50,288 nt of DNA from an uncultured Gammaproteobacteria bacterium (lineage in GTDB: Bacteria; Patescibacteriota; Microgenomatia; Levybacterales; UBA12049), in NCBI GenBank assembly GCA_964497535.1, contig CAZCCG010000003.1:60436-110723 (forward strand), in the 5' to 3' direction. A program made the translations under genes and the position numbers. This document shows, one piece after another, positions 207 through 48,526 of this stretch. The notes below the pieces were generated by a model. It saw only the letters and a list, made by a program, of their open reading frames with translations, searched no databases and was not told the DNA's origin. Position 1 is the first letter of the stretch. Every line of letters begins with the position of its first letter.

Positions 207-1049
207 ATGGAAGAATTTGTTCCTATCTTATCAAACCAAGAGAAAAAATTAATTAAACCAAAAAATTCCCTTTTTGTTTTAGTTACTGGATTAACTGTGG
301 GACTCGTCCTTTTGATTGGCTATTTCAAGTTTTTTTCAGGATCAAGTCTGCCGCAAAACTTTATCGTTGCGTATCAAGTAGTAGATTCAACAACCAAAGC
401 TATTTTGGGATCGTATAATTTCAATTTTTCACAATTGTCATCATATGGAAAAAACCATGACGTAGAGGGAGCATTAAAACTGATAGCAGACGGCCTTTCT
501 CAAAATATTCAAAATTCTCAACGAATGGGTAAACTTGTAAAAGAAACTGTTGCTTTAAAATCGCAGCAAATTGATAGTTCTAACCAGGCATTGAGTGATA
601 AAGCAGCAAAGCTGTATAGCCTAATTGACCAGCGCAATGCTCATATATCTTCATATCTTTCCAATCAGGAAAAAGTCCTCACAGCGCTTAAGAAATTCTA
701 TGAAGCAGGAGAAGGAGCAAAACTTGAAATCGATATTGATCAGTTGCTTACGCTGATGCAGCAGGATTTTGGTTCTATTAATGAGCTGAATTTTCAGATA
801 GATGCTACATATCAAGATCTTTTAAAGATAGCCGGTGTTAACACAGATGAACAACAGGCAAATGGCGCTTTTATACAATTGCAACTGCGTACAACTCCAG
901 AGATAAAACCAACAGTGCAATATTCGGTTCCAACAATACCCCCAACGCCTACTATAGCCGTGGAAGCTCCAACTGCTACTCCGGCTGCAACTTCTATTCC
1001 GACTCCTGTTTTGACTCTTTCTCCGGCTGCAACTTCTTCAGCCCATTAA
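207..1049 (+). CDS. Membrane-anchored hypothetical protein, helical body with Pro/Thr-rich tail
   Basis: N-terminal TM segment; C-terminal PTPT/TPAAT repeats. Confidence 0.75.
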   Translation: MEEFVPILSNQEKKLIKPKNSLFVLVTGLTVGLVLLIGYFKFFSGSSLPQNFIVAYQVVDSTTKAILGSYNFNFSQLSSYGKNHDVEGALKLIADGLSQNIQNSQRMGKLVKETVALKSQQIDSSNQALSDKAAKLYSLIDQRNAHISSYLSNQEKVLTALKKFYEAGEGAKLEIDIDQLLTLMQQDFGSINELNFQIDATYQDLLKIAGVNTDEQQANGAFIQLQLRTTPEIKPTVQYSVPTIPPTPTIAVEAPTATPAATSIPTPVLTLSPAATSSAH

Positions 1050-1078
1050 TATTGACAGCCCAGTACTTATAATAAAAG

Positions 1079-1113
1079 TTAGCAATTAGCAATTAGCAAT
1101 TAGCAGTTAGAAA
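1079..1113. repeat. Tandem heptamer TTAGCAA x3 plus two degenerate copies
   Basis: TTAGCAA TTAGCAA TTAGCAA TTAGCAG TTAGAAA read directly. Confidence 0.85.
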
Positions 1114-1172
1114 CTTGACAGCAATAAAACCTATCTTCTACTATAGATAGAGGTACTGCATAGTAGGATAAT

Positions 1173-1276
1173 AAAGGAGGTGAAATAATAACAACTAACA
1201 ACTAGCGAATAACTAATAACAATTGTATAAAGAATTTTTGTTGGCAGTTAGATGTTAGCAGTTAGAAGTTGAATAC
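1173..1276 (+). promoter_or_regulatory. Shine-Dalgarno separated from its ATG by an 88-nt periodic hairpin (copy 1)
   Basis: AAAGGAGGTGAAATA, then ~34-nt arms pairing in 5-bp blocks with 2-nt internal loops, then C ATG at 1277; homologous to 37861-37962. Confidence 0.7.
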
Positions 1277-1687
1277 ATGGGTAAAAGTAGAAAAAATACA
1301 ACAGCTCCAAAATCTGGCAGCGCAACATTGTGGATTGCCTTAATTGCTTTGGTTATTGGTTTAGTAGGTGGATTTATGGTTGCCAAAGTAAAATATTCTG
1401 CAAAAATTACGACACTGAGCATTATGTACAACCAGAAAGATGGTCAACTGAATGAGCTGAAAGCTCAGGCTAATCGCATGATGTTACTAAATGGGCAAAT
1501 GTATGTAATGAAGGATGGCCAACTAAGTCCGATGACAGAAGATATGATTTTGACCAACGGTTCCAAAGTGATGAAAAATGGTGAAGTAGTGCTGCCCGGA
1601 GGTAAAACAATGATGATGGGTAACGGTGACTCCATAGGAATGGATGGAACAGTACTGGGACAAAAGATGAAGGGTGTCCAATTTTAA
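1277..1687 (+). CDS. Membrane-anchored protein with Met-rich C-terminal domain (DUF6799-like)
   Basis: TM helix, coiled coil, then MMLLNGQMYVMKDGQLSPMTEDMILTNGSKVMKNG. Confidence 0.65.
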   Translation: MGKSRKNTTAPKSGSATLWIALIALVIGLVGGFMVAKVKYSAKITTLSIMYNQKDGQLNELKAQANRMMLLNGQMYVMKDGQLSPMTEDMILTNGSKVMKNGEVVLPGGKTMMMGNGDSIGMDGTVLGQKMKGVQF

Positions 1688-6666: not shown

Positions 6667-8355
6667 ATGCATCTTTTTATAGAACTGAGCATCATTATAG
6701 GAATTGCCGCAGTGATGTCTCTGCTTATGCGGCTGTTGAAGCAACCGCTTATCGTTGGATACATTCTGACGGGTATTGTATGCGGGAGATATTTCTTAAA
6801 TATCCTTACTTCAACTGATGAAGTAGAAGTATTTTCAAAGATTGGTATTGCAATACTTTTGTTTATCCTCGGACTGAATTTAAGCCCGCGTGTTATTCGT
6901 GAAGTAGGAAAAGTGTCTATTCTGGGAGGAATAGGGCAGATTATTTTCACATCTATTATTGGTTTTATTATTGCAATACTGCTTGGGATTCCTCAGATTG
7001 CTGCTTTATACATAGCAATTGCGTTGACATTTAGCAGCACTATTATCGTTTTGAAACTGCTTTCGGATAAAAGAGATCTTACCAAGCTGTATGGAAAAAT
7101 CGCAATTGGGTTTTTACTCGTACAAGATATTGTTGCCAGCCTGATTCTTTTGGCAATTTCGTCTTTTTCCCAATCACATGGTACCAATCTTGTGGATGCT
7201 GCTGCTACAATTATTCTCAAAGCAGTCGGGATTTTCCTCATGTTATATCTTTTCAACCGATTTGTGATGCCCTACGTCAGTAGATATGCCGCAACGTCCC
7301 AGGAAATGTTATTTCTTTTTTCTCTTGCATGGGGACTGGGATTATCTACCTTATTTTATCTGTTCGGTTTCTCCATAGAAATCGGCGCACTGATTGCCGG
7401 AGTTGCATTATCTCTTACCCCTTTTTCTTATGAAATAGCCTCAAGGCTCAAGCCACTGCGTGATTTCTTTATCATTTTATTTTTTATCCTTCTTGGTTCT
7501 CAGATGGTTTTGGGTAATCTGGGGAATTTGTTTGTTCCGGCTCTTGTCTTGTCCATTTTTGTTCTCATTGGTAATCCGTTGATTGCCATTATCATTATGA
7601 ATTTGCTAGGATTTCAAAGGAAAACCGGATATCTTGCCGGAATTACAGTAGCACAAATTAGTGAATTTTCTCTGATTCTTGCAACTCTTGGATTCAACCT
7701 GGGGCAGTTATCTTCAGAAATGCTCTCACTGATTACGTTAGTTGGCCTGATTACTATCGCAGGATCAAGTTATCTCATTTTATATGGAGAATCTTTATAT
7801 CCTCATATTGAACCATATCTTCGATTTATCGAATTTAACAAACGTTCCAAAAGAACCGCCAAAGATGAAATTCATCCTGATATTCTTCTATTTGGATTTG
7901 GGAGAGTGGGGAGACATTACGTACATGCGTTTCGGGCGTTGAAAAAGAACTTTCTAGTTATTGACTATAATCCTATGAGTATTGCAAAACTGCAGCAAGA
8001 ACATATCCCTCATCTGTATGGCGATGCTGATGATATTGAATTTGTCCAAGAGCTTGGGTTACCACATATAAAAATGATGGTTTCAACAATGCCTGATTTC
8101 AAAACGAATATGGGACTTATCCAAAAAGTTAGAGGGGTAAACAACGATGCAATTGTAATTGTAGTTTCCCATACCGTAAAAGAAGCAAAAGAATTTTATA
8201 AAGCGGGTGCTACGTATGTTATTATGCCGCATTATTTAGGTGCGCAATATGCAGTACAAATGATAGAAGAACATGGATTTGATAAAACCAAATTTGACGA
8301 TGCACGGGGAATTCATATGGCTCATCTGAATTTTGAGCACTTTGTACAGGGATAG
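6667..8355 (+). CDS. CPA2 cation:proton antiporter with C-terminal TrkA_N (RCK) domain, Kef-like
   Basis: LKQPLIVGYILTG, FSSTIIVLKLL, LLVQDI, AQISEFS, GFGRVG. Confidence 0.92.
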   Translation: MHLFIELSIIIGIAAVMSLLMRLLKQPLIVGYILTGIVCGRYFLNILTSTDEVEVFSKIGIAILLFILGLNLSPRVIREVGKVSILGGIGQIIFTSIIGFIIAILLGIPQIAALYIAIALTFSSTIIVLKLLSDKRDLTKLYGKIAIGFLLVQDIVASLILLAISSFSQSHGTNLVDAAATIILKAVGIFLMLYLFNRFVMPYVSRYAATSQEMLFLFSLAWGLGLSTLFYLFGFSIEIGALIAGVALSLTPFSYEIASRLKPLRDFFIILFFILLGSQMVLGNLGNLFVPALVLSIFVLIGNPLIAIIIMNLLGFQRKTGYLAGITVAQISEFSLILATLGFNLGQLSSEMLSLITLVGLITIAGSSYLILYGESLYPHIEPYLRFIEFNKRSKRTAKDEIHPDILLFGFGRVGRHYVHAFRALKKNFLVIDYNPMSIAKLQQEHIPHLYGDADDIEFVQELGLPHIKMMVSTMPDFKTNMGLIQKVRGVNNDAIVIVVSHTVKEAKEFYKAGATYVIMPHYLGAQYAVQMIEEHGFDKTKFDDARGIHMAHLNFEHFVQG

Positions 8356-15100: not shown

Positions 15101-15105
15101 CCTAA

Positions 15106-15186
15106 GCGTCTAGTTATGAAGCGTTTAGCGTTTAGTTCGAAAAATAGTATTAACTATACACCATACGCTTATCCAACTATGCGCTA
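15106..15186 (+). repeat. Heptamer-period hairpin of the GCGTTTA family
   Basis: GCGTCTAGTT..GCGTTTAGCGTTTAGTT / AACTATACACCATACGCT..AACTATGCGC; related to 31752 and 48456. Confidence 0.65.
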
Positions 15187-17496: not shown

Positions 17497-18837
17497 ATGG
17501 TATTTGGCAAAAAAAGACTCATCGTATATCTTCAAAAAAGCTCACTTGAGTTGATTGGTCCTCACTTGGAAAGCCAGGAAAAGATTGATTTCCCCAAAGA
17601 TACCTTTCGCGACTTACAACTGAAAGACAAAAACCAATTCAGAGAGTCAATTATTATATTTCTGGCAAAAACAAGCCTTCCCAAACATAAAATTACCCTC
17701 ATTCTATCTAAAGATTTGTTATTCGAAGAAACGGTTCCTTTTACTGATCGCGATAAAGTAAAAGAACAGGCAACTGCATTTTTCAACTCCCTTCCTCTGA
17801 ATGCAGAGCAAATAGCCAATGAAATGCTTGCAAACGATAAGGAAGTTTATTTATATGCTACCAATCGTGAGATTTATAGTATTATTATTGACGCATTTTC
17901 TTCCATCGGTTGGGATGTAGATACGGTTATTCCGGTAACTCTTCTTGAGGTAAAAGAACAAACAATAACGCGAGAATTAGCCCAGAAGATTCTCAAAGAT
18001 AAATCTCTCATAAAAACCGGGGATTTGCTGGTAAAAAATCAACCGCTTGCAATTGTAGCGCCACCGATAGATCCTAAGGCAGAAAAGGGAGCGGATACAG
18101 AGGAATCTGATCGGCATCCGTTATTGCAGGAAGAGGTTGAAGAAGAGAAGACTATAGAAAAAAAGCCTGAAAAAGAAGAAAAGAAGTCTAAGGCCCCGGA
18201 AGTAAAAGAAGAAAAACCACAGAAAGAACAAGAAAAACTTGAAGAAAAGGAAGCATCTCATGTTTCAGCAGGACAAAAAGGAGAAGAAGAGGTTAAAAAG
18301 GCTGAGGGAGACTATTTTATTAAGTCAGATAGCTTTGAGATTAAAAATGAGAAGAAAGGATTTCCAAAACAATATTTGTTTTATGCATTCCTGATATTTC
18401 TTGTTGTAGTAGGAGCAGTAGGAGGGTGGCAGATTTATTCCAGAATCCAACTACGGTCCTCAATTGAAAAAGATCTAAATACCGTGGATGTTGCCAAAAA
18501 AGCAAAGGTTACCCCAACGCAAATACCGACTCCAACCGTGGTTGGGAAACCAAAAGAGAACCTGAAGGTGGAAATTCAAAATGGAACCGGAACTCCCGGT
18601 CAGGCAAAAAAAGTTCAGGGTATCGTATCAGATCTGGGATACAAACAAATTGAAGCAAAAAATGCCGAGAGTACCGATAATGCGGATACCATTGTTTCTT
18701 TCTCACCAAATATTTCTTCATCGGACAAACAAGAGCTTCTTGCTACACTCAAAAAGACATTCAAAAAAGTTGTCTCGAAAGATTTACCTGAAAGCAGTAC
18801 TTCAGATATCCTCATCGTCACCGGAGCAGAACTCTAA
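17497..18837 (+). CDS. Membrane protein with C-terminal LytR_C domain and Glu/Lys-rich linker
   Basis: VEIQNGTGTPGQAKKV...DILIVTG after a single TM. Confidence 0.78.
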   Translation: MVFGKKRLIVYLQKSSLELIGPHLESQEKIDFPKDTFRDLQLKDKNQFRESIIIFLAKTSLPKHKITLILSKDLLFEETVPFTDRDKVKEQATAFFNSLPLNAEQIANEMLANDKEVYLYATNREIYSIIIDAFSSIGWDVDTVIPVTLLEVKEQTITRELAQKILKDKSLIKTGDLLVKNQPLAIVAPPIDPKAEKGADTEESDRHPLLQEEVEEEKTIEKKPEKEEKKSKAPEVKEEKPQKEQEKLEEKEASHVSAGQKGEEEVKKAEGDYFIKSDSFEIKNEKKGFPKQYLFYAFLIFLVVVGAVGGWQIYSRIQLRSSIEKDLNTVDVAKKAKVTPTQIPTPTVVGKPKENLKVEIQNGTGTPGQAKKVQGIVSDLGYKQIEAKNAESTDNADTIVSFSPNISSSDKQELLATLKKTFKKVVSKDLPESSTSDILIVTGAEL

Positions 18838-36833: not shown

Positions 36834-37442
36834 TTAGCAGCCGAGTTTTTGTTTGCAGGAAGCTTTTGCAGTTGCATTCGGAATAGAATCACATGCCGAA
36901 CATGCATTTCCCATTTTGATGCTTGGTCTTATTCCCTGCATAGCATTTGAGGCATCAATAAAATTGATATTGGATGGGGGAGTAAACAGAGTTGTATCAG
37001 GTGTCCAGCTTGTGCAGGTATAGTTATATTTTTGATTAAAATTATCCATTTTTTCTTGAGAGGGCATGCTCGTTGGGTTTGTTGCAGCTTTGTACGTCAT
37101 TTTAGTTCCTATATTTGCTGCAGATGTCCAGGTATAAATAATATCTCCTTTTTTAATCATATAAGTCTTTATCGTTTGTTTTGCTATTGTTGTAGTAAAA
37201 TTACCTCTTAGATTGGCTCCTGAGACATATATCACTCCATTGCTAATTGTTTTTTGTTGTTTAGTGGAATAGGTACATTGCATATCTTTTCCGGTATTGG
37301 TGAGATCCCAGAATTTACCGGTCAGTTTTTTGTTGATTACGGGAGTTTTTGCATCTGCAAGGGGAACACTATACGGGGAGGAAGAAAGAACGATTCCTAC
37401 TATTGAAATGAAAGCTATCAGTAAGACAATAAGCTTATTCAT
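36834..37442 (-). CDS. Secreted hypothetical protein with Cys-rich tail
   Basis: Signal peptide, CTSW.PD..LF.PP, C-terminal CSAC...C...C. Confidence 0.75.
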   Translation of the reverse strand: MNKLIVLLIAFISIVGIVLSSSPYSVPLADAKTPVINKKLTGKFWDLTNTGKDMQCTYSTKQQKTISNGVIYVSGANLRGNFTTTIAKQTIKTYMIKKGDIIYTWTSAANIGTKMTYKAATNPTSMPSQEKMDNFNQKYNYTCTSWTPDTTLFTPPSNINFIDASNAMQGIRPSIKMGNACSACDSIPNATAKASCKQKLGC

Positions 37443-37505
37443 AATCTATAACCAGTATATCACATGGATTGCACGATTTTCAATAGACAATGTGAGGGGA
37501 TTATA

Positions 37506-37543
37506 AATTAAGCATTGACTTAATTAAGAAAATAGTTTATTAT
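37506..37543 (+). promoter_or_regulatory. Promoter TTGACT-17-TATTAT with overlapping ArsR-type operator
   Basis: AATTAAG-N6-CTTAATT palindrome covers the -35; ATG 6 nt after the -10. Confidence 0.7.
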
Positions 37544-37549
37544 GTCTCC

Positions 37550-37876
37550 ATGGATACATTTTCGGCACTTGCAGACCCGACCCGTCGACACATTATCGAA
37601 CTTCTCGCAAAAAAAGGAACGTTACCTGCGACTTCTATTTCTTCCAACTTTCGGATGAGTCCGCCTGCAATTTCCCAACATCTCAAGGTGTTACACACTG
37701 CAAATTTAGTATCTGTTGAAAAAAAAGCGCAGCAACGGTTGTACAAAATCAACCCCAATGCAATAGACGAAATTGAGACCTGGCTTCACATGCTGAAAAA
37801 ACAATGGGAAGCACGGTTTGATCGGTTAGATATATTACTTGCTAAAGAACAAAAAAAACGAAAGGGGGTGAAATAA
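37550..37876 (+). CDS. ArsR/SmtB family regulator
   Basis: FSALADPTRRHII, AISQHLKVL, W..RFDRLD. Confidence 0.92.
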   Translation: MDTFSALADPTRRHIIELLAKKGTLPATSISSNFRMSPPAISQHLKVLHTANLVSVEKKAQQRLYKINPNAIDEIETWLHMLKKQWEARFDRLDILLAKEQKKRKGVK

Positions 37877-37962
37877 TAACAACTAACTACTGATTCATGA
37901 CTACTAACATGTATGTAAAAGATTTGTTAGAAGTTAGAGGTTATTAGTTAGAAGCTGATATT
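37861..37962 (+). promoter_or_regulatory. Shine-Dalgarno separated from its ATG by an 85-nt periodic hairpin (copy 2)
   Basis: AAAGGGGGTGAAATAATAACAACTAAC...GTTAGAAGCTGATA TT ATG; 29 of the first 31 nt match copy 1. Confidence 0.7.
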
Positions 37963-38439
37963 ATGGAAGATCAAGTTGGTAAAGAATTAACAATGACCCG
38001 TACGTTTGACGCACCAAGAGATGTGGTTTTCAACGCATGGACTGATGCCAAATTAGTTGCACAGTGGTGGGGACCAAATGGAGTATTTAATCCTGTTTGT
38101 GAAGTTGATGCTCGCGTAGGAGGCAAAATACATATCATTATGGAAGCCGGAGAGGAACTGGGTAAATTCAAAGGAACTCAGTGGCCGATGACGGGGGAAT
38201 TTAAAGAGATAGAAAAACCATCAAAAATTGTTTTTGCTGCGAATGCTATCAACAATGATACAGTGATTTTGGAGCATCTCACAACTGTTACATTTGAAGA
38301 AGAGAATGGTAAAACCAAAATGAAAGTTCATGTCGTTGTAACAAAAGCTCTCCCAGGATCAGAATTTGCCATTAAAGGCATGGAACAAGGATGGAACCAG
38401 CAATTGGACAAACTGGTGAAGTTTATCCCAACAAGCTAA
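37963..38439 (+). CDS. SRPBCC/Aha1-like domain protein
   Basis: RTFDAPR..VF.AWTD...WWGP, GWNQQLDKL. Confidence 0.9.
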   Translation: MEDQVGKELTMTRTFDAPRDVVFNAWTDAKLVAQWWGPNGVFNPVCEVDARVGGKIHIIMEAGEELGKFKGTQWPMTGEFKEIEKPSKIVFAANAINNDTVILEHLTTVTFEEENGKTKMKVHVVVTKALPGSEFAIKGMEQGWNQQLDKLVKFIPTS

Positions 38440-48175: not shown

Positions 48176-48454
48176 ATGAGATTATACGATCTTGTTGTGG
48201 TTTTCAAAACCTCGCTGACAGAGGAAAAACGAAAGAAATTGCTTGAGTCTATTAAAGAGATGCTCAAGGATGTTAAAGTTAGCAAAGAAGAGTCATTGGG
48301 CCAAAAAGTCTTAAGCTACCAAATCAAGCATGAACAGCTGGGTGTTTTTTATCGTATGGCCTTGGAGACTGACAAAACTGTTCCGCTCGACTTTGAAAAA
48401 AGACTGATAAATAACGAATCGATACTCAGACACTTGTTAGTACGAACTAAGTAG
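48176..48454 (+). CDS. rpsF: 30S ribosomal protein S6
   Basis: MRLYDLVV, G.K.L.Y.I, ILRHLLVR; rpsF-ssb-rpsR order. Confidence 0.92.
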   Translation: MRLYDLVVVFKTSLTEEKRKKLLESIKEMLKDVKVSKEESLGQKVLSYQIKHEQLGVFYRMALETDKTVPLDFEKRLINNESILRHLLVRTK

Positions 48455-48518
48455 GGTTTAGTTAAAAAGCGTTTAGGGTTTAGTTAACTATACCCTGTAC
48501 GCTAATAACTAAACGCTA
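48452..48518 (+). repeat. Heptamer-period hairpin filling the rpsF-ssb spacer
   Basis: TAGGGTTTAGTTA..AGCGTTTAGGGTTTAG / CTATACCCTGTACGCT.ATAACTAAACGCTA. Confidence 0.8.
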
Positions 48519-48526
48519 GATACACT

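Follow-up and report, generated by a model that had tools for sequence, protein, structure and literature searches.

Two split translation starts in the window

The window analysed here, a 50,288-nt stretch of a 1.17-Mb Levybacteria assembly (Candidate Phyla Radiation, CPR), contains two loci at which a hairpin built of heptamer units lies between the Shine-Dalgarno (SD) sequence of a gene and its start codon. Both loci (site 1, 1173-1279; site 2, 37861-37965) read AAAGGRGGTGAAATA, then a hairpin of 83-92 nt with 7-nt periodicity, then ATG. An earlier note on this DNA had described the SD-hairpin-ATG order at 1173 and 37861, the 7-nt period and a shared 5' 31-mer, AAAGG(A/G)GGTGAAATAATAACAACTAAC(A/T)ACT, identical at 29 of 31 positions, and both alignment and folding agree with that description. 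The likeness continues through the whole SD-to-ATG segment, which has a mean column identity of 80% over its full length, non-periodic loop included. The features of the two loci are:

1079 to 1110, forward strand: (TTAGCAA) x4.6 tandem heptamer array, of the unit family of the site 1 hairpin (Tandem Repeats Finder, period 7, 96% matches)
1115 to 1144, forward strand: promoter-like site TTGACA-18-TACTAT (consensus scan, 10/12 matches; prediction)
1173 to 1188, forward strand: site 1 SD AAAGGAGGTGA and A-rich spacer (complementary over 11 nt to the 3' tail of the genome's own 16S)
1189 to 1271, forward strand: site 1 hairpin, with a (NNCTAAC)n arm, a 15-nt loop and a (GTTAGNN)n arm (minimum free energy, MFE, fold; covariance models R1 and R2)
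1277 to 1687, forward strand: downstream gene 1, intact, encoding a membrane-anchored DUF6799 protein of 136 amino acids (Pfam PF20606, E 5.5e-18)
37550 to 37876, forward strand: arsR-family regulator gene, the last codons of which hold the site 2 SD (PF01022, E 1e-12)
37861 to 37872, forward strand: site 2 SD AAAGGGGGTGAA (found in the same place in hairpin-free orthologous junctions)
37873 to 37964, forward strand: site 2 hairpin (MFE -21.7 kcal/mol, z -3.2, 0 of 200 shuffles as good)
37963 to 38439, forward strand: downstream gene 2, intact, encoding an AHSA1/SRPBCC protein of 158 amino acids (PF08327, E 2e-26)

The GGAGG core of site 1 occupies 1176-1180 and its ATG begins at 1277; at site 2 the GGGGG core (37864-37868) falls within the last arsR codons, shortly before the arsR stop TAA (37874-37876), and the ATG begins at 37963. 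The distance between the end of GGRGG and the ATG is 96 nt at site 1, 94 nt at site 2 and 74 nt at a third copy described below (site 3), and 8-9 nt at canonical starts of the same genome (6328, 25168, 31031 and 38469). On recheck, the arithmetic by which the earlier note skipped each hairpin to arrive at ordinary spacing was correct, as were its four canonical SD spacings. Each of the three SDs is perfectly complementary to the 16S tail over 11 nt: AAAGGAGGTGA complements the genome's own GATCACCTCCTTTCT, and the tail sequence GGATCACCTCCTTTCT was located at the start of contig C3.

The period-7 arrays of site 1 span 1187-1222 and 1246-1270, and its MFE hairpin consists of helices of 5-6 bp between which 2x2 internal loops recur at a 7-nt period, with a free energy of -19.3 kcal/mol (z -2.1; equally good folds in 4 of 200 shuffles). 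In the site 2 fold, the arsR stop (37874-37876) is paired at the hairpin base with the A and U of the downstream AUG (37963-37965), which form the bottom two pairs.

Homologues of downstream gene 1 align from residues 6-17 onward, and metagenome orthologues of downstream gene 2 are 74-76% identical, one of them aligned from residue 1. Despite a divergence of about 20% between the two hairpin copies, both genes are intact and have strong Pfam matches. At sites 1 and 2 there is no SD-like 4-mer between -18 and -3 and no alternative start behind the hairpin, and an in-frame stop lies inside the hairpin in the site 2 sequence that was read. Promoter-like sites are predicted upstream of both SDs and none inside or after either hairpin, and a promoter within the hairpin was rejected on that account. 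With the predicted promoter at 1115-1144, the SD and hairpin of site 1 would fall inside the 5' untranslated region; the (TTAGCAA)x4.6 array abuts the 5' side of its -35 box. No terminator-like site (GC-rich stem and U-tract) occurs in window positions 1000-1400 or 37400-38100, and the reading of the hairpins as intrinsic terminators was rejected for want of a U-tract. No Rfam family matches anywhere in the window. Upstream of site 2, a promoter-like TTGACT-17-TATTAT (window 37515-37552) ends 7 nt before the arsR ATG (37550); since no SD lies between them, the arsR mRNA is probably leaderless.

Hairpin-free junctions and the spread of the repeat

At the arsR-AHSA1 junctions of relatives the sequence reads AAAGGRGGTGAnnnnnATG and there is no hairpin. 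All ten correctly oriented junctions upstream of AHSA1/SRPBCC genes (L002, L004-L008, L011, L012, L014 and L015) carry a GGAGG- or GGGGG-type SD about 3-9 nt before ATG, and the hairpin is conserved in none of them. L012, for example, has AAAGGGGGTGAAAAATA-ATG behind an arsR homologue, and the metagenome junctions include GGGGGTGAAAAATA-ATG (L038) and AAAGGAGGTGAAAAAA(A/TA)-ATG or -GTG (L040-L042). When positions 37876-37960 are removed from the window, what remains is GGGGGTGAAATATT-ATG, equal in length to the junctions of the hairpin-free relatives. The earlier note had proposed comparing orthologues for empty sites, and the hairpin-free junctions show the very spacing that it predicted by skipping the hairpin. 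This equality of length, together with the hairpin-free orthologues, indicates that the element entered a canonical spacer whose SD was already in place. It is thus very probable, as far as sequence comparison can tell, that the SD is ancestral and the hairpin an insertion into the spacer between SD and start.

Among the 16 best metagenome junctions only one, L037, has a hairpin, and it is a different one. In this orthologue (74% identity) a perfect 14-bp palindrome, TTAAAGTTCAAAAT / ATTTTGAACTTTAA (L037:636-725; z -4.7), lies between the ATG and an SD that is within the last codons of an upstream AHSA1 paralogue; this is an independent split-junction event at the orthologous gene. Homologues of downstream gene 1 (at most 36% identity) are too distant to define an empty site; the one readable homologue locus, L023, has a canonical AGGAGGTGATATT-ATG.

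Where the earlier note had the element present twice, a covariance-model scan of the whole genome finds it three times, among many heptamer hairpins. Site 1 (E 9e-21) and site 2 (E 3e-19) are joined by a third strong match on the minus strand of contig C6 (4385-4475, E 3e-13), the next match having an E value of only 0.07, and on these values the module is not a product of chance. This site 3 reads AAAGGAGGTGAAAT, followed by a shorter CTAAC/GTTAG hairpin and the ATG of a 64-amino-acid membrane open reading frame (ORF); its fold by itself is no better than those of shuffled sequences (z -0.4). Other scans were less sensitive: an exact-motif search allowing up to four substitutions returned the window copies only and missed site 3 owing to an indel, a seed-based inverted-repeat scan missed all focal hairpins, whose stems are imperfect, and periodicity and MFE scans were noisy and missed the focal sites, so that counts from them are rough context. 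The assembly holds 235 arrays of 7-nt period belonging to several unit families.

One hairpin of another heptamer family (CAGTTNT / ANAACTG), about 120 nt long, lies on contig C4 (~7070-7210, locus L033:555-725, minus strand) between AAGGAGGT and the ATG of a 467-amino-acid ORF, which begins 10 nt past the 3' foot. Its free energy is -43 kcal/mol (z -2.75), and about 130 nt separate SD and AUG. This hairpin is situated within a 173-nt divergent intergenic region, in which about 25 nt are left for a promoter upstream of the SD.

The consensus of ten copies from seven genomes is ATAAC-AACTAAC-TACTAAC-ANCTAAC-TTCTAAC, loop, GTTAG-NAGTTAG-AAGTTAG-TAGTTAG-AAGTTGA. The hairpin-only model R2 matches 54 of 151 family genomes, in 37 of 89 genera. 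The repeat family occurs in all kinds of intergenic context, including the 16S-23S spacer and the space between tRNA genes. The arms are paired in 87.3% of cells against 88.1% in shuffled controls, and the covariation score is below that of the shuffles; the pairing arises because both arms keep the heptamer consensus and is not evidence of selection on RNA structure. The nested register used for this comparison was supplied by hand, as RNAalifold on the ten copies chose a slipped register of the periodic arms.

Sites 1 and 2 are mutual nearest relatives (0.71 identity versus 0.47-0.64 to other copies), which points to copying within the genome, and site 3 resembles them no more closely than foreign copies do. 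No consensus and no obvious target duplication appear in the 14 nt flanking either end of 61 aligned copies, and the ATA/TA at the junctions of this genome is ambiguous as a target duplication. At site 2, to judge by the position of the SD within arsR coding sequence, the few bases between the arsR stop and the ATG are the sole non-coding target. Sites 1 and 3 lie in putative 5' untranslated regions and not in an operon junction, and had further non-coding DNA available, yet all three junctions read GGTGAAAT(A) up to the point of joining and (A)TAACAAC after it. This common junction could have arisen from microhomology between the A-rich spacer and the terminal AATAAC unit of the element, or from copying of a cassette with the SD consensus as homology arm.

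A possible route to the start codon past the hairpin

The reading we put first, holding it with as much doubt as confidence, is that of a tolerated repeat insertion that survives by folding out, a by-product of repeat spread and not a purpose-built control module. The element is a palindromic heptamer repeat whose (NNCTAAC)x4-5 and (GTTAGNN)x4-5 arms flank a loop, and three copies of it have very probably entered, by insertion or by recombinational copying, the A-rich spacer of 8-9 nt that separated an ancestral SD (AAAGGRGGTGA) from the start codon of unrelated genes. In mRNA the insert would fold as a long weak hairpin, leaving 4-13 single-stranded nt between SD and AUG, and a 30S subunit bound at the SD could reach the AUG past the folded hairpin in the fashion of phage T4 genes 25 and 38. 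The insertions are most likely tolerated because the start would still be within reach of the 30S subunit. Predicted single-stranded linkers are 8+5 nt at site 1, 4+0 at site 2, 13+0 at site 3 and ~1+10 at the C4 hairpin; these linkers, the SD-16S complementarity, the predicted upstream promoters and the intact genes together favour a looped-out insert and continued use of the old SD. That the distal SD is actually used across the folded hairpin we propose only tentatively, from predicted folds and the T4 analogy, putting its chances a little below even.

The T4 precedent invoked in the earlier note is a real one, and among tested mechanisms it is the closest. According to the account at PMC3014915, the folded structures at the split sites reduce the spacing from 27 to 11 nt for gene 25 and from 22 to 5 nt for gene 38, and stem mutations lower initiation there (Nivinskas 1999; Malys and Nivinskas 2009). 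The sites described here resemble these in having a strong distal SD and a stem-loop that cuts, or here would cut, the effective spacing (5-11 nt in T4, and a predicted 4-13 nt here), and the site 2 SD, like that of the T4 26-25 junction, stands at the end of the upstream cistron (PMC3014915). They differ in scale, the T4 inserts being 22-27 nt whereas 74-96 nt separate SD and AUG here and ~130 nt on C4, and in evidence of function, since the T4 structure is described as conserved in T-even phages and has been tested by mutation (PMC3014915), whereas ours is a dispersed repeat, absent from orthologous junctions, with a predicted fold and no covariation. Here, moreover, two of the three copies have part of the AUG within the stem.

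Several observations weigh against bridging. The linkers are not tuned to one length, varying from 4 to 13 nt here and reaching 18-20 nt in L037 and L124, and the arms show no covariation. The AUG is partly paired, with a predicted unpaired probability of 0.61-0.79 at site 2 and 0.17-0.52 at site 3, and in longer predicted folds the SD is itself mostly paired (0.21-0.24). Strong distal SDs bridged by any single hairpin precede 24 genes in this genome versus 12 with reverse-complement decoy motifs, which is only a two-fold excess.

An unbiased survey of relatives (60 loci with 63 R2 hairpins, read on both strands to give 126 orientations) bears on the same question. Starts were taken mechanically and some are spurious; on this basis, in 48 of the 126 orientations the hairpin 3' end has the start codon of a long frame close by, at -4 to +22 nt. 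An SD word is absent in 39 of these 48 and lies between hairpin and start in six, several of which have it in the final GTTAGGAG or GTTAGAGGT unit; rarely does one stand on the 5' side of the hairpin, a 4-nt word in two cases and a 5-nt word in one. Likewise, 31 of 37 heptamer hairpins in this genome that end at most 16 nt from a start have no SD-like word nearby, in a scan that missed the three focal sites, and only 376 of 1274 crude gene calls (~30%) have a proximal SD word, so that initiation independent of an SD seems common in this genome. These counts also weigh against bridging.

Clear foreign cases of the split arrangement are few. The SD-containing model R1 found one among 24 loci, L124 (G067), which reads AAGGAGGTGAAAACA-hairpin-GATATAAATCA-ATG. 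L133 (G018:C10:469-580, minus strand) has, in order, an SD-like AAGGAAGTGAAATA, a two-codon mini-ORF (ATG GCA TAG), a CTAGC-type heptamer hairpin and the ATG of the gene; the hairpin seems to have landed directly behind an old start codon. In this genome AGGRGGTG occurs 63 times; a start follows 3-15 nt further on at 32 of these sites, and the remaining 31 include the three hairpin sites. The split arrangement is thus real and recurrent but rare, and the element usually fills the spacer before an SD-less start.

The alternative that survives best, unlikely in our judgement and still to be taken seriously, is that the distal SD is a relic: translation would proceed without it, and the hairpin would be neutral selfish or slippage DNA or have some other role at the start codon, for instance as a site for an RNA-binding protein. 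The prevalence of SD-less starts beside hairpins in relatives (39/48) and in this genome (31/37), and the scarcity of proximal SD words among its gene calls, all favour this explanation. Set against it is the preservation of the SDs, all three of which are still perfect 11-nt complements of the 16S tail while the hairpin copies are ~20% diverged; preservation at site 2 says little either way because that SD is also constrained as arsR coding sequence. The partly sequestered AUG of sites 2 and 3 would also be a hindrance to initiation without an SD, for which the start region usually has to be open.

A published repeat family lends the relic explanation further support. Marine Beggiatoaceae, Cyanobacteria and Bacteroidetes have intergenic direct repeats of the heptamer TAACTGA that stop shortly upstream of SD-less start codons, and in Beggiatoaceae they have been proposed as a site for an RNA-binding protein (MacGregor 2015; PMC4679880). 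Among described sequence classes these repeats are the nearest: the 7-nt unit is near-identical, the arrays end a few nt before starts, the downstream genes are mostly SD-less and long arrays break assemblies. The units found here (TAACAAC, TAACTGC and TTAGCAG) match TAACTGA at six of seven positions at best. Unlike the TAACTGA repeats, which are reported as direct, predicted to be unstructured and located upstream of any SD, ending 2-25 bp before it (MacGregor 2015; PMC4679880), ours are inverted array pairs predicted to fold as hairpins and lie between SD and ATG. They also belong to the CPR, whereas TAACTGA repeats are from other phyla.

We consider improbable a regulated switch, with the whole module under selection, whose weak AU-rich hairpin would mask or expose the start, acting as an RNA thermometer or being bound by a heptamer-binding protein. 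A partly paired AUG (sites 2 and 3), a stem of short AU-rich helices of 5 bp, which should melt easily, and the recurrence of the same SD-hairpin-ATG unit before three unrelated genes would all suit such a device. Nevertheless, the module is not conserved at orthologous junctions, its arms do not covary, it has no Rfam match, and the family occurs in all intergenic contexts, down to the 16S-23S spacer and the space between tRNA genes. The three downstream genes also share no functional theme. The dedicated translational-control module entertained in the earlier note consequently lacks support, an SD being found 5' of the hairpin in only 1-3 of 48 starts and neither covariation nor conservation at orthologous junctions speaking for it.

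It is also improbable, if broader in its consequences, that Levybacteria copy whole cassettes (SD, spacer, hairpin and pre-ATG spacer) by means of the SD as homology arm, with ribosomes routinely initiating across hairpins of 80-130 nt, either past a looped-out insert or by a shunt-like hand-over. The latter, taken alone as an explanation of site 2, is very improbable. A ribosome terminating arsR at the 5' foot would be passed across the hairpin base to the AUG, much as in the plant pararetrovirus shunt and T4 gene 60 bypassing. The pairing of the arsR stop with the AUG in the bottom helix, and the order SD, ATG GCA TAG, hairpin, ATG in L133, would fit such a hand-over. Sites 1 and 3, however, have no upstream ORF, and what speaks for a shunt is geometry alone. 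Programmed bypassing of the T4 gene 60 type was rejected, as sites 1 and 3 offer no ORF from which to take off and site 2 has no matching take-off and landing codons.

Excision of the hairpin from RNA or DNA would, if precise, restore a contiguous ribosome-binding site with canonical spacing, but it is extremely improbable given that contigs from four DNA runs of one study, three of which may be the source of this assembly, contain no variant, indel, deletion or joint at site 1, that the 61 aligned copies show neither target duplication nor flank consensus, and that no known bacterial mechanism is indicated. Of the earlier suggestion of a mobile hairpin that stays silent by folding out or being excised, the part that stands is a copied or inserted element in a canonical spacer, as the empty sites attest; for the part concerning excision, the DNA contigs at site 1 give no evidence.

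To our knowledge, hairpin-bridged ribosome-binding sites have been experimentally tested for two phage T4 genes only, with inserts of 22-27 nt. Here, in a cellular genome, intact genes have their only SD 74-96 nt away from the AUG, on the far side of a dispersed repeat. If these genes are expressed through the distal SD, the ribosome tolerates very large looped-out inserts, which would account for the spread of a repeat family into even the narrowest non-coding gaps of a streamlined CPR genome with no loss of genes. If the distal SD is unused, the sites are natural experiments in SD loss, and if whole cassettes are copied and ribosomes routinely initiate across them, this would amount to genome-wide use in a cell of non-contiguous ribosome-binding sites, so far known from two phage genes only. 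The family also matters for annotation, since such starts will be mis-scored by gene callers that insist on a proximal SD.

Possible mobilisation and other heptamer hairpins

Hairpin-forming dispersed repeats of bacteria include REP, BIME and REPIN elements with their RAYT transposases, and Correia and ERIC-type MITEs. The Levybacteria element resembles them in being short, palindromic, intergenic, multi-copy and co-transcribed, with copies more alike within a genome than between genomes. It differs in the internal heptamer periodicity of its arms and in having no target duplication or flank consensus. The genome has a single intact Y1 (IS200/RAYT-like, PF01797) transposase gene encoding 233 amino acids (C2:120237-120935; L204/L205), which is not flanked by the repeat, and no inverted repeat of at least 14 nt occurs within the 3.2-kb Y1 locus. 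Of the 151 family genomes, 71 have Y1 homologues; a single genome holds up to ~9 matches, and some of these contain internal stops. In a hand tally of these 151 genomes, uncontrolled for relatedness, 37 have hairpin and Y1 gene together, 17 have just the hairpin and 34 just the Y1 gene, and 63 lack both; in genus g2 all four genomes have hairpins and none has a Y1 gene. REP/REPIN-like mobilisation is at present a weak lead suggested by these matches.

We found no published description of this arrangement, no account linking Levybacteria with heptamers or Patescibacteria with heptanucleotide repeats, and none on Shine-Dalgarno sequences and intergenic hairpins in the Candidate Phyla Radiation. 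The Levybacteria family of heptamer hairpins therefore appears to be undescribed.

Perfect (TTAGCAG)n / (CTAACTG)n arrays of at least 7-8 units end two contigs of this assembly (C6:40470-40524 and C9:20523-20576) and hence break it, and a third (C2:170474-170529) begins inside a stop codon. Within the window, two hairpins of a TAGCGTT / AACGCTA type (~15105-15185 and ~48448-48522; C3:75540 and C3:108883) end 0 and 4 nt before the ATGs of 353- and 173-amino-acid ORFs, respectively, with no SD-like word nearby. In two relatives, CTAAC/GTTAG hairpins directly follow the 16S rRNA 3' end (CACCTCCTTTCTAAA...; L128, G066:C115:53-127, and L148, G021:C52:213-283) and so occupy the rRNA spacer. In another (L196, G080:C15:17658-17729 and 18258-18329), two hairpins 600 nt apart share a common 3' flank, GACTGAAAGAAGATAT-ATG, before two different genes, which reads as a hairpin-plus-leader cassette copied between junctions, the mirror image of the window case.

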